Source: Okeania sp. (GTDB lineage: Bacteria > Cyanobacteriota > Cyanobacteriia > Cyanobacteriales > Microcoleaceae). From it: 28,545 bases of DNA. Positions 1-4,099 of this stretch are shown piece by piece. Positions within the stretch are counted from its first letter, which is position 1. Every line of letters begins with the position of its first letter. The stretch is from contig NZ_JAYKGW010000034.1 of the NCBI RefSeq assembly GCF_035285525.1, forward strand, positions 1 through 28,545, in the 5' to 3' direction. The position numbers and the translations under genes are program-made. Below the pieces are notes generated by a model. That model had not been told where the DNA came from, ran no database searches, and saw nothing but the letters and a program-made list of their open reading frames with translations.

Positions 1-410
1 GGTATCCAGACACGGCGGGTCGGGCTGGCTTTGAGGTATCGCGTATTTAATAAATCAACCAAGTTTAATCGCTGCATAGGAGGTAGGTTTTTTATACCGT
101 CTATTCCCGCAGTTTTCTTACCCTGGTTATCTTGAGTCACGCGCCTAACAGCTAGCAACCTAGCGCAATAACTTTTGGTCAGAAGTCTTTGGTATTTACG
201 CATCTTGCGGATTTCGCCACGGCTGGATGCTCTGTAAATTAACTTTTGCAACTTAAATACATTCTTCTCAACCCGTCTCCAGTTGATATCCTTCCATTTA
301 AGATTTGGATTGATACATACCGGGTCTGGTATATCGTCTGTATCCCATGCCACGCTTAAAAAGGGCTTTGGGTTTCCCAATCTTCTTTTTAGTGTTTTAG
401 CTTTATTCAT
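1..410 (-). CDS. Group II intron-encoded reverse transcriptase/maturase, N-terminal 136 aa (partial; continues past the window edge)
   Basis: This is my own reverse-complement translation from the ATG at 410-408: MNKAKTLKRRLGNPKPFLSVAWDTDDIPDPVCINPNLKWKDINWRRVEKNVFKLQKLIYRASSRGEIRKMRKYQRLLTKSYCARLLAVRRVTQDNQGKKTAGIDGIKNLPPMQRLNLVDLLNTRYLKASPTRRVWI. The INW..VEK.V.KLQ..IY.A / LLAVRRVTQDNQGKKTAGIDG / RRVWIP blocks are the RT0-RT2 signature of bacterial group II intron proteins. It is absent from the ORF track because it has no stop codon in the window. Confidence 0.92.
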   Translation of the reverse strand, partial: MNKAKTLKRRLGNPKPFLSVAWDTDDIPDPVCINPNLKWKDINWRRVEKNVFKLQKLIYRASSRGEIRKMRKYQRLLTKSYCARLLAVRRVTQDNQGKKTAGIDGIKNLPPMQRLNLVDLLNTRYLKASPTRRVWI

Positions 411-1013
411 CGCTATTTATTACCTTACATTACGTCTAACAGTGGGTACGTCAGCAAAATCATGCTTTTTACCCAATCCTACTCTCCCTAAGACCTACGA
501 TAAAATGCGTAGATTTACCTTGAATGGCTTCCTAAGATTTCGACCTATATACTTAGGTGTCTTAGAGAGGTTTCCTCGTTCCCTTATCCCTTTATTACGG
601 CCAATTTAGTGGGGTAAAATCTCCCGGAGGGTTCAGTATGGTTGTTGATAATTTTCCTGTTATAAAATTATCCATTGACCCCCTGACTTTCGTCCTACAT
701 CCCATAGCTACCTTGGGGATGGATTGACGTAACGAGAGTTTGATTACCTTCCTGTTTGTCCACTTGTCAGCCTTTGCTTGCGGTATCGTTCCTCGGTAAC
801 TGGTATTTTTCCGCTTTTAGACCAGCTTTAGGGATTGATGTTCAGTCGCTACCCTATGGCCTATGCTTTCTACCCAACAACAGGGCGGTGGAATTTCACC
901 ACGAAGGAAATAAGAGTTTTCCAATGGCCAAATATTTAACCTCCTTTAAGATTAGCCACGGAAGGCCAGATATACCTGCTGAAAAGCAGTTTTGACTAGC
1001 CAACGAGTCGCAC
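1..1013 (-). mobile_element. Group II intron, 5' portion (domains I-III plus the start of the domain IV ORF). It runs off the left edge of the window.
   Basis: The minus strand reads ...GAACCTTTT|GTGCGACTCGTTGG, with the GUGCG 5' splice-site consensus starting at 1013. About 600 nt follow without an ORF (1013 down to 411), which is the expected size of domains I-III. The intron-encoded protein ORF then starts at 410. Domains V/VI and the 3' exon are outside the window. Confidence 0.88.
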
Positions 1014-1694
1014 AAAAGGTTCATCATAAGTTCCCACCCATTCCTTACTATTCCCTATCCAATTTACTATTTTCTCAGCTACCTTATCTGCAGGTGGAGC
1101 AGAATTAACTCGCTGTTCCCGAATCTTATAAGCTTTATCATTCAAACGATTCACAGGCGCCCAAGCAAATTTACCAGCTATTACCCCAGGGCGATACAAT
1201 CGGAGGTAAATCATATTTTTACTAGAATGATATACAATTGGTCCGACTCCAGACCAGAAATAATGTAAGGCTATTTTTCCAGAATGATAAACAGGTCCGA
1301 AACAGGAAGGACTTCCATCAGCAATGGAACCAATGGCAATGACATCTAAACGTCTACTTCTAACTAACTTTGCTGCTTCAGTCGCCACAACGGCAGGCCA
1401 AGTATAGTTAACTCTGTTCATTGATTCTACCAACTCAATGACAGGAATCCCACCTTCTCCCACTTCGGTTTCAATTTGACCAGCGTTTAATATTACCACA
1501 TCTGGGTCATAGTCAAATAGTTTTTTGGCATCTTCTATAGTTTCTTGGGGAGAAACATACAACTCATCAAAAAAATCTCCTTCTAGATTAGGTTGACGAG
1601 TCACACCGACAACTCGCCACCCCCGTGACTTATATGCTTTACCCATCGCACTACCTAAAGTGCCAGAAATTCCAGTAATTACAACAGTTTTCAT
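996..1694 (-). CDS. SDR-family NAD(P)-dependent oxidoreductase, exon 1. The native coding sequence ends at 1014; the last 5 codons and the stop are intron sequence.
   Basis: N-terminal Rossmann motif VITGISGTLGS, NAG motif (VILNAGQ), and YxxxK motifs (YHSGK, then a second YHSSK). The ORF tail VRLVG* (1013-996) is read from the GTGCGAC... start of the intron. Confidence 0.8.
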   Translation of the reverse strand: MKTVVITGISGTLGSAMGKAYKSRGWRVVGVTRQPNLEGDFFDELYVSPQETIEDAKKLFDYDPDVVILNAGQIETEVGEGGIPVIELVESMNRVNYTWPAVVATEAAKLVRSRRLDVIAIGSIADGSPSCFGPVYHSGKIALHYFWSGVGPIVYHSSKNMIYLRLYRPGVIAGKFAWAPVNRLNDKAYKIREQRVNSAPPADKVAEKIVNWIGNSKEWVGTYDEPFVRLVG

Positions 1695-2302
1695 ATAATT
1701 TTATCCATGAACGAATAGCCCTGTAGCAATTAGCTATTATATAGTGTCTGGTTGAATAAAGAAAAAGCTTTTAAGATTATTTATATACAGGTTTTAAATA
1801 TTACTGATTTTTGTTTCTATAAATTCTGTTTAAGTATCTCAATAAGCTTTTGGAAATTATTACTTTGATAGTGTTTTAAAAGTTTAATAGCTGTTTTTTA
1901 TGGTTCGTCTATTTTCACATTAATAATTTTAGTTTTATATCAAATCCGATAGTATTGGTAGAATTCAAGACCGTAGGGGTTTGGTCTCCAATTTATCGGG
2001 AACCGTACGCTCTACAAACTAACTAGGATTTGTAGCTTTTTTCTGATTATAAACCTTATTCCCCAAAGCAAGTGGATTTGATATTACAGCAGATTTCAAT
2101 CAAATAATATACAAAGTGAATAACGAAAATTTTCTAGTGGGGTTATCTTGCCCGCGATGGGCGTAGTTAATAATAGTCAAAAGAACTGTATATCACACAA
2201 ACAATACATTCTATAGAAATTACCAATTGGTTGCTTGAAAATGAACCTGATTATTTACAAGAACTTGCTGAATTTTTAAAAGGAATAATCGAAAATTCCT
2301 CA

Positions 2303-2588
2303 AATCAATAAAAAATTAATTCCGGGTCGGAAATAGAGTAAATTAGCGATCGCTTCCCTCTGCTCAACAATACTTAGGCAAAGGTACTAGGTATAGATTC
2401 AAAAAAACTATTGTACAAGAGTTTTAAACTTTATAGATAGAGTCTCTGTCAATCAATAAAAAATTAATTCCGGGTCGGAAATAGAGTAAATTAGCGATCG
2501 CTTCCCTCTGCTCAACAATACTTAGGCAAAGGTACTAGGTATAGATTCAAAAAAACTATTCTACAAGAGTTTTAAACTTTATAGATAG
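2303..2588. repeat. Tandem duplication: two 138-bp copies (2303-2440 and 2451-2588, period 148 bp) with 1 mismatch
   Basis: Direct comparison of the two copies (aatcaataaaaaattaattccgggtcggaaatagagtaaattagcgatcgc...ttatagatag). The only difference is ttgtacaag versus ttctacaag. Each copy carries a HIP1 site and the AAAACTAT-N6-AGAGTTTT palindrome. Confidence 0.95.
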
Positions 2589-2785: not shown

Positions 2786-4099
2786 ATGTCTACAAAACCC
2801 ACCATCGCATTTAGTCACCTGGGATGCGAAAAAAATCGCATTGATACCGAACACATCATCGGTTTACTCGCACAAGCAGGTTATCAAGTAGATGCTAACG
2901 AAGAATTAGCAGATTATGTTGTCGTCAACACCTGTAGTTTCATCCAAGCTGCTAGAGAAGAGTCTGTCAGAACTTTGGTAGAATTAGCTGAAGCTAATAA
3001 AAAAATAGTCATTGCTGGTTGCATGGCACAACACTTTCAACAAGAACTACTCGCCGAGTTACCAGAAGCTGTAGCACTCGTCGGTACAGGTGATTATCAT
3101 AAAATAGTAGACGTGATGCAACGAGTCGAAAAAGGCGAGCGCGTCCAAGAAGTTACCCCGGAACCTACTTACATCGCTGACGAAACTACCCCCCGTTACC
3201 GCACAACATCTGAAGGCGTTGCTTATGTGCGAATCGCCGAAGGATGCGACTATCGTTGCGCTTTCTGTATCATTCCTCATCTTAGGGGAAATCAGCGATC
3301 GCGCACCATAGAATCTATTGTCGCCGAAGCTCAACAACTAGCACACCAAGGCGTTAAAGAAATTATTCTTATTTCCCAAATAACCACCAACTATGGAGTC
3401 GATATTTATGGTAAACCACAATTAGCCGAACTGCTGCGGGCGTTAGGGAAAGTTGATATACCCTGGATTAGAATGCACTACGCTTACCCCACTGGTTTAA
3501 CACCCAAAGTCATAACCGCCATCCAAGAAACTCCCAATGTTTTACCATACCTCGATTTACCCCTACAACATTCTCATCCCGAAATTCTCAGAGCAATGAA
3601 TAGACCTTGGCAAGGTCAAGTTAACGATGATATCATTCAAAAAATTAAAGCAGCTATGCCTAACGCCGTGTTGCGGACAACATTTATTGTTGGCTTCCCT
3701 GGTGAAACCGAAGAACATAATGCACATTTAGTAGAATTTGTCAAGCGTCACGAATTTGATCATGTCGGCGTCTTTACATTTTCTCCAGAAGAAGGAACCC
3801 CTGCTTATAATTTGCCCAATCAGTTGCCCCAAGAATTCATGGATGCTCGCCGGGAAGAAATTATGGAAGTCCAACAGTCCATATCTGAGAAACAAAATCA
3901 AAAATTAGTGGGACAAGTAGTCGATGTACTAATTGAACAAGAAAATCCTCAAACCGGAGAATTAATTGGTAGATCGGCCAGATTTTCTCCAGAAGTAGAT
4001 GGACTGGTTTATGCTCAAGGAGAGGCCAGATTAGGGTCAATTGTTCCAGTAAAAATTACAGATGCAGATATTTACGATTTGTATGGCCAGGTACAGTAA
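2786..4099 (+). CDS. rimO: Ribosomal protein S12 methylthiotransferase RimO (radical SAM MTTase)
   Basis: N-terminal UPF0004 domain with three Cys (HLGCEKN, VNTCSF, IAGCMAQ). Radical-SAM CxxxCxxC motif ([10 protein letters not shown]). C-terminal TRAM-like domain. It lies upstream of a DEAD-box helicase, as in the Synechocystis rimO-crhR operon. Confidence 0.92.

Follow-up and report, generated by a model that had tools for sequence, protein, structure and literature searches.

At the left end of the window, by which we mean the whole stretch of 28,545 nucleotides analyzed here (28.5 kb from the start of contig C34, which belongs to a genome bin of 260 contigs that is 97% complete), the minus strand carries exon 1 of an SDR oxidoreductase gene at 1014..1694, which was delimited from the open reading frame listing and a Pfam adh_short match, covers codons 1-227 of 258, and ends in ...YDEPF. 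The minus-strand open reading frame 1694..996 comprises 232 codons, the final five of which (VRLVG) are intron-derived: the last exon codons, GAT GAA CCT TTT, end at 1014, and GTGCGACTCG follows from 1013. Direct reading of the sequence placed the 5' splice site GTGCG at 1009..1013 (minus strand) and bore out the claim of an earlier sequence-only reading that the SDR frame runs straight into the group II 5' splice consensus at 1013; likewise, the unspliced frame was found to survive for five intron codons (VRLVG*) before an in-frame TAG at 996..998 on the same strand closes it, as that reading had stated. The stretch of about 600 nt that it had described as free of open reading frames corresponded to 1013..411 (603 nt), in which no credible frame was present, and the frame behind it, for which RT0-RT2 blocks had been claimed, starts with an ATG at 410, contains the quoted strings, and matched Pfam RVT_N (7e-33). 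The observation of the SDR gene and the intron as first described was confirmed.

The product of exon 1 scored 32.9 bits against Pfam adh_short (PF00106; cut-off 26.6), and its translation contains the SDR motifs TGISGTLG (TGxxGxxG) and YHSGK (YxxxK). Exon 1 was 81-96% identical to the intron-less homologues of relatives. As to the substrate or function of the SDR, an NCBIfam search returned no equivalog above the cut-off. In addition, a contig of run X1, a lagoon metagenome obtained from DNA that is the probable source sample, spanned 879-1986 with 0 differences, which indicated that the 5' exon/intron junction is present as DNA.

The remainder of the intron was located on a second contig, C87, which overlaps window positions 1-76 exactly, this 76-nt overlap being the end of both contigs; the 76-mer occurred in no further contig of the genome bin. 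The start of domain IV and codons 1-136 of the intron-encoded protein (IEP) lie at 1..410 of the window (minus strand; RVT_N match and 76-nt overlap), and the reading frame of the IEP runs on across the C34/C87 overlap, with 488 residues on C87. On the latter contig (locus L005), the rest of this frame extends to 1469, as judged from the RVT_1, GIIM, and HNH matches, and is followed by domain V at 1543-1577 (RF00029 over 1541-1618), the branch A at 1611, the 3' splice site after 1618, and SDR exon 2 at 1619-1711 with its stop codon at 1712-1714. The total length of the intron in the joined contigs is 2555 nt. Extension of the contig, proposed earlier as a check, thus supplied domain V/VI, the 3' splice site, and the 3' exon, and the true C-terminus, which had been predicted to lie outside the window, was found in a 31-codon exon on C87. 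The scenario of an intron fragment with neither domain V/VI nor a 3' exon downstream fails, since both are on C87.

In intron-less relatives, the sequences flanking the intron abut base for base (window 1014 corresponds to position 1501, and C87 1620 to position 1499, of locus L007), and for the other part of C87 synteny was found with the DNA that follows the SDR gene in Trichodesmium erythraeum and in one other relative. The overlap, the IEP frame, the exon continuity, and the synteny all support joining C34 to C87. The middle of the intron crosses an assembly break, in which, strictly speaking, an extra insertion might be hidden; the intron family has several copies in the same genome bin, such as the cinA and C126 copies, and all of them break the assembly. 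These results correct the annotation, in that the SDR is not truncated and the two contigs can be joined.

Immediately after the 3' end of the intron, the reading frame on C87 encodes SFKIFKYLFALFPNFFYRLQLYGWPKGSKFM and closes with a stop codon. Joining exon 1 in frame with the 31 codons of the 3' exon, a step that the sequence-only reading had suggested, gave a protein of 258 aa, which is the length of 12 intron-less homologues of the same genus or family and which aligned end to end with them. Neither exon contained a stop or a frameshift, and the C-terminus was identical to that of the closest homologues except for the junction residue, the first of exon 2. The insertion lies between codons 227 and 228, in phase 0, 31 codons before the stop. 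Carriers of homologues were collected by a scan of one genome per species, including Okeania, Trichodesmium erythraeum IMS101, Dapis, Lyngbya, Limnoraphis, and others. The insertion site was empty in all 50 loci examined, from about 35 genomes (Trichodesmium, Okeania, Dapis, and Lyngbya among them), and the insertion is therefore specific to one lineage. The first base past the site is G (GGN, Gly) in all Trichodesmium, Okeania, and Dapis alleles, as opposed to A (AGC, Ser) in the intron-bearing allele.

At the 3' end of the intron, the Rfam model RF00029 (Intron_gpII, domains V/VI) matched L005 1541-1618 along its entire length (model positions 1-77 of 77) with 48 bits (gathering score 40), and its last position coincides with the inferred 3' splice site, which follows ...GCTTAGTTTAAC. 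This 3' 12-mer is common to all family copies with a located 3' end but one, which differs by a single base. Domain V also reached the gathering score of the plastid ndhA/ndhB D5 model (53.8 vs 53), the bulged A of domain VI lies 7 nt from the intron 3' end ...AAC, and compensatory changes between intron subfamilies were observed in the domain VI helix. At the 5' end, the first 14 nt were kept with at most one mismatch in all family copies, each beginning with GTGCGACTCGTTGG or one mismatch off, the copies for this comparison having themselves been retrieved by a 1-mismatch search. The 5' 603 nt of the intron matched many copies in relatives at 74-90% identity. The proposed folding of the 5' part against group II covariance models found no backing in Rfam, as neither a group II match to the 5' part nor a D1-D4 model came up when window 1-2500 was scanned at E ≤ 1; the sole match in this range, CRISPR-DR58 (E = 0.61), is at chance level and was rejected. 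Domains I-III were therefore delimited solely from the family alignment: RNAalifold on 12 family copies predicted 149 pairs in these domains, 28 of them with compensatory changes, and on the minus strand placed domain I at 575..1007 (intron ~7-439), domain II approximately at 484..569, and domain III approximately at 437..481. Judging from this anatomy, the intron looks complete and intact, and the element looks functional.

The IEP comprises 600 aa in total with YADD at residue 308, and carries, besides RVT_N, the domains RVT_1, GIIM (maturase), and HNH. Against the NCBIfam model for group II RT/maturases, TIGR04416, it scored 324 bits (cut-off 300). The best solved relative was PDB 6ME0 chain C (5.7e-94, over residues 5-471 of the part on C87), which we take to be the T.el4h group IIB intron RNP from Thermosynechococcus elongatus, with an IEP of the chloroplast-like class. 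The two systems share the RT-X-D/En architecture and the use of EBS1, EBS2, and EBS3, the match itself being one of sequence similarity only. LtrA, the protein of Ll.LtrB, was a distant match to the IEP (E = 1e-30) covering the RT fingers only.

The exon-binding sites were identified by covariation over about 40 to 54 family copies, with controls. EBS1 (AACAGG; intron 353-358, window 656..661, minus strand) occupies positions 4-9 in the 10-nt loop of a hairpin with strong stem covariation and pairs with IBS1 (CCTTTT; exon -6..-1, 1014..1019, minus strand) at 5/6 positions, AACAGG and CCUUUU being interrupted by a C.U mismatch at -3. EBS2 (CGTCA; intron 285-289, 725..729, minus strand) pairs 5/5, with one G.U, with IBS2 (TGATG; exon -13..-9, 1022..1026, minus strand). 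The complementarity to the exon end that had been anticipated was thus present for both elements. Over 44 family copies, the EBS1-IBS1 pairing was 6/6 in 27 and 5/6 in 14, and mean EBS1 pairing amounted to 5.06/6 with the own exon vs 2.39/6 with swapped exons; for EBS2, 5/5 pairing at the same offset was found in 11/17 family sites vs 4/272 swapped-exon controls. EBS3 was assigned to intron position 395, which formed a Watson-Crick pair with +1 in 36/38 distinct sites (8/38 for the runner-up column); in the SDR intron it is a U (619..619, minus strand), and its partner is the first base of the 3' exon, A. As a result, EBS1, EBS2, and EBS3 are now mapped for a large intron family.

An EBS3 contact marks IIB introns, and IIA introns use delta-delta' instead. 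Going by the contact found here, the intron is of structural subgroup IIB. The U of EBS3 pairs canonically with the derived A at +1, with which the ancestral G is to be contrasted, as it would only wobble; we infer that the intron was inserted into an allele already carrying A, or that replacement of G by A at +1 was favoured later. The C.U mismatch at -3 could possibly lower splicing efficiency. A search of the 44 copies for a donor, which would share EBS1 (AACAGG) or EBS2 with the SDR intron and match its own site perfectly, found none.

Taken together, the interpretation of an intron-interrupted SDR gene put forward in the sequence-only reading appears supported, and we consider it very probable that a full-length mobile IIB intron has been retro-inserted into the 258-codon SDR gene and that the full-length enzyme is made after splicing. 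According to this model, a full-length mobile intron of 2555 nt, of subgroup IIB and putatively of the cyanobacterial/chloroplast-like type, would have been retro-inserted between SDR codons 227 and 228 in an Okeania/Trichodesmium-type cyanobacterium. Transcription of the SDR gene would read through the intron, and the folding of the ribozyme would be helped by its own RT/maturase/HNH protein of 600 aa, encoded in domain IV. EBS1-IBS1 and EBS2-IBS2 pairing would hold the 5' exon and EBS3-IBS3 pairing the 3' exon, and the intron would leave as a lariat, with the bulged A in domain VI as its branch point. The ligated exons, whose junction is predicted to read ...GAACCTTTT up to the splice site and AGCTTTAAG from there on, would form an mRNA that encodes the whole 258-aa SDR, including the conserved C-terminal 31 residues. 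The unspliced RNA would give only a truncated protein consisting of 227 residues plus VRLVG, so that the full-length SDR would depend on splicing. Splicing in vivo and present mobility are both plausible on the basis of the intactness of the element and of precedent.

The main competing explanation is that of a dead insertion, in which the intron would no longer splice at this site, or would do so too poorly, and the SDR gene would be a recently disrupted but otherwise undamaged pseudogene. The mismatch in the center of EBS1-IBS1 is compatible with such a state; however, a third of the family copies have one EBS1 mismatch, some of them in essential-looking genes, and the +1 base is the canonical partner of EBS3. 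The insertion is unique to one lineage and hence possibly very recent, and many pseudogenes are present in T. erythraeum (PMC4649490); yet the catalytic and exon-binding elements and the IEP of 600 aa are all intact, neither exon has acquired a stop or frameshift, and the peptide of the 3' exon equals that of the relatives except for the junction residue. Spliced SDR RNA turned up in none of the runs, which counts for a dead insertion; X1, the single run with this organism, is from DNA. Two metatranscriptome runs, X15 and X16, contained intron RNA and none of the SDR exon: they covered 81-1013 only, at 90-99% likeness and very deeply, the coverage stopping at the 5' splice site. Since the SDR exon is absent from these runs, they represent intron RNA of relatives and not the splicing of this SDR gene. 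On balance, we regard a dead insertion as unlikely.

An assembly artefact, in which the halves on C34 and C87 would derive from different intron copies or strains, was judged to be highly improbable. The join indeed rests on a 76-nt overlap of two contig ends within a 260-contig metagenome bin that holds several assembly-breaking copies of the same family, but on each contig the intron half runs without a break into its SDR exon, and these exons abut exactly in relatives; the 76-mer is absent from all other contigs, C87 has the same downstream synteny as in relatives, and the IEP frame and the order of the domains are continuous over the join. Still more remote, and rejected here, is the reading that the intron sits effectively behind the gene, the true end of the SDR being at or near ...YDEPF, an outcome that the sequence-only reading had itself named as contrary to its proposal. 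Nothing was found in its favor. All homologues run at least 31 residues further, through a highly conserved motif that is FKIFKYLFALFPNFFYRLQLYGWPKGSKF in the closest relatives, and the same tail is encoded directly after the intron on C87. The spliced, full-length SDR thus remains the preferred interpretation.

A survey of the intron family collected 54 distinct insertion sites. In T. erythraeum, four copies matched the 5' 600 nt at 82-86% identity, one of them at a dnaN-like site. Across the family, copies were found in genes resembling rpiA, hisH, dnaN, dnaG, recF, argC, cysK, rpsB, thyX, prfB, and others, the names of these host genes being judged from flanking peptides and not by family search; some host genes contain two introns, and derivatives of 1.0-1.8 kb are ORF-less. 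According to reviews, the group II introns of bacteria are mostly found outside housekeeping genes. The proposal of the sequence-only reading that an intron inside a coding gene is unusual is valid for bacteria as a whole but fails for the Trichodesmium-type clade, in which coding genes with introns have been documented (PMC4649490, PMC4424553). In T. erythraeum, 17 group II introns are reported to splice in vivo, many of them inside protein-coding genes (PMC4649490), and its dnaN and RIR introns are the textbook case (Meng et al., 2005, as cited in PMC12584367). The SDR gene is thus a new host gene rather than a new principle, the habit of the intron being known in this cyanobacterial group.

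The closest known systems are the introns of T. erythraeum IMS101 (dnaN, RIR, thyX, and others; Pfreundt and Hess, 2015, PMC4649490), which belong to the same host clade, T. erythraeum counting as a same-genus relative in the genome set, and to the same intron family. Like the SDR intron, they lie inside conserved ORFs, their exons rejoin precisely, and both ORF-carrying and ORF-less copies occur; unlike in these introns, the SDR host gene and site are new, the site being empty in T. erythraeum. Splicing, which is predicted for the SDR intron, has been documented for those of Trichodesmium. The introns of T. elongatus are mostly outside conserved ORFs, whereas the SDR intron lies within a gene; the twintrons of T. 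elongatus lack coding exons (PMC4649490). Ll.LtrB, in the ltrB relaxase gene of Lactococcus lactis, is also mobile, also encodes an RT/maturase/En protein, and likewise makes its host protein dependent on splicing; it differs in being a IIA intron with delta-delta', in contrast to the EBS3 of the SDR intron. LtrA recognises G-21 of its target. Recalling this recognition, G was enriched at -21 in the target profile of the SDR-intron family. Certain other bacterial IIB introns are tied to protein-coding genes, and their position relative to the codons matters; the authors who described them raised the possibility that folding is affected by ribosomes close to the 5' splice site. The SDR intron differs from them in its place 31 codons ahead of the stop and in lacking the insertion described there.

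Dependence of a full-length enzyme on splicing is rare in bacteria at large but documented for Trichodesmium and relatives. The exactly mapped lineage-specific insertion, with its pair of occupied and empty sites, is usable for mobility or splicing experiments.

Apart from the SDR locus, the insertion sites of the family displayed a bias in codon phase. Among the 32 distinct coding sites, defined as those where joining of the exons yields an open frame of 100 codons or more, phases 0, 1, and 2 were represented by 25, 2, and 5 sites, respectively (binomial p = 3e-7 vs one third). In 26/32 coding-site copies, a stop in frame 0 occurred at intron codon 6-7, and the first frame-0 stop lay beyond codon 10 and later than the own-frame stop in only two copies, both of which are non-phase-0, with the own-frame stop at codon 10-11. 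Of the unused frames, too, about two thirds had a stop within 14 codons, and an early in-frame stop as the sole cause of the bias was rejected as non-discriminating. The target profile showed A at +1/+2 in all phases, together with G at -21 and T at -19, -16, and -13; since the A-A preference at +1/+2 is shared by all phases, it cannot create the bias and was likewise rejected as its cause.

A model of target preference, for which only 13 putatively non-coding sites served as the training set, was applied to the long ORFs of this genome and predicted 47% phase 0, and 57-63% at the best-scoring positions, vs 78% observed; the 13 training sites may include decayed genes, in which case the control would be partly circular. 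Target preference, as modeled, explains much of the phase-0 excess, perhaps all of it. That the excess also reflects translation-linked selection, beyond the choice of DNA targets, is a tentative idea to which we give a low probability: insertions might survive best where ribosomes entering the unspliced intron terminate at once, so that the ribozyme would not be unfolded.

Literature searches for such a phase bias in bacterial group II introns returned no report. For spliceosomal introns, the phase-0 excess has been described as not fully explained (PMC3488318), and for this reason the family-wide phase-0 excess could matter more than the SDR insertion itself, although target preference accounts for much of it here. 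If the idea of translation-linked selection is true, the family would constitute a natural bacterial group II population with a phase-0 excess like that of spliceosomal introns, and would provide a system in which its cause may be tested.

In the intron-bearing allele of the SDR gene, the first base of the 3' exon (+1) was A, within an AGC serine codon, whereas all same-clade relatives carried G, within a GGN glycine codon (window 1014 and position 1619 of L005, the contig C87 locus holding the 3' part of the intron and the second SDR exon, compared with the homologous loci L007-L018 and L106-L121). A at this position is the canonical partner of the EBS3 base of the intron (U395), and it was also the preferred +1 base across the intron family (24 of 38 sites).

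The family copies surveyed in relatives (L037-L057 and L066-L105, including L067, L070, L077, L084, L102, and L105) further revealed a marked bias in codon phase. Of the 32 distinct insertion sites whose joined exons could be read through for 100 codons or more, 25 lay in phase 0 (p = 3e-7 versus one third), against only 47-63% expected from a target-preference model built from non-coding sites. At 26 of these 32 sites, a frame-0 stop was found 6-7 codons inside the intron.

Matches to the interrupted SDR locus were also found in sequencing runs. In two metatranscriptomes, X15 and X16, labeled as synthetic and symbiont metagenomes, RNA contigs 90-99% similar to the 5' part of the intron (window 81-1013) were present at very high depth, and their coverage ended at the 5' splice site. 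This RNA is intron RNA of relatives, and the signal possibly reflects the accumulation of excised introns. In a macroalgae metagenome, a 271-nt contig (X2 record 30) matched the exon over window 1014-1140, up to 1014, and continued with 144 letters of non-intron sequence; it may represent an intron-less SDR allele from a related organism.

As for the flanks, a dispersed repeat was observed at window 1935-2080, where the depth of the DNA run X1, the probable source metagenome, rose from 21 to approximately 1250 and numerous loose ends fell within 1937-2021. The C87 flank contains a string resembling it, GGAGACCAAACCCCTACG, near 2100. A weak Rfam match to CRISPR-DR58 in this region (E = 0.61) is at chance level. 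Downstream of the SDR gene, C87 carries on its minus strand a 289-aa ORF (3054-3923), conserved in position in relatives, which may encode a PhzF-family isomerase.

The genome of the window contains at least three more family copies, each interrupted by a contig end, and in addition a more distant intron on C126 (44% IEP identity). Intron sites were located at C101:11798 (plus strand), on C103 at 127 nt from the end (minus), on C136, with the 3' end and a CinA-like exon (minus), at C252:14722, and, for the distant intron, at C126:7990. Such introns are among the main reasons why the assembly of this bin is broken.

In several cases, two family introns occupied one host gene, either separated by only 15-20 codons or placed at distinct positions within it: L087 (Trichodesmium erythraeum genome G005, 5586624-5590274), a thyX-like gene (L091 and L094), and a dnaN-like gene (L053 and L077). 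At L092, a single 3' end was preceded by two 5' ends, an arrangement that looks like nested or tandem introns. Short derivatives of the family, 1.0-1.8 kb long (L092, L093, L098, L102, L103, L053, L057, and L095), retained both intron ends and domain V, while the IEP ORF was mostly or wholly gone. Since their host genes appeared intact, these derivatives would need the maturase to be supplied in trans.
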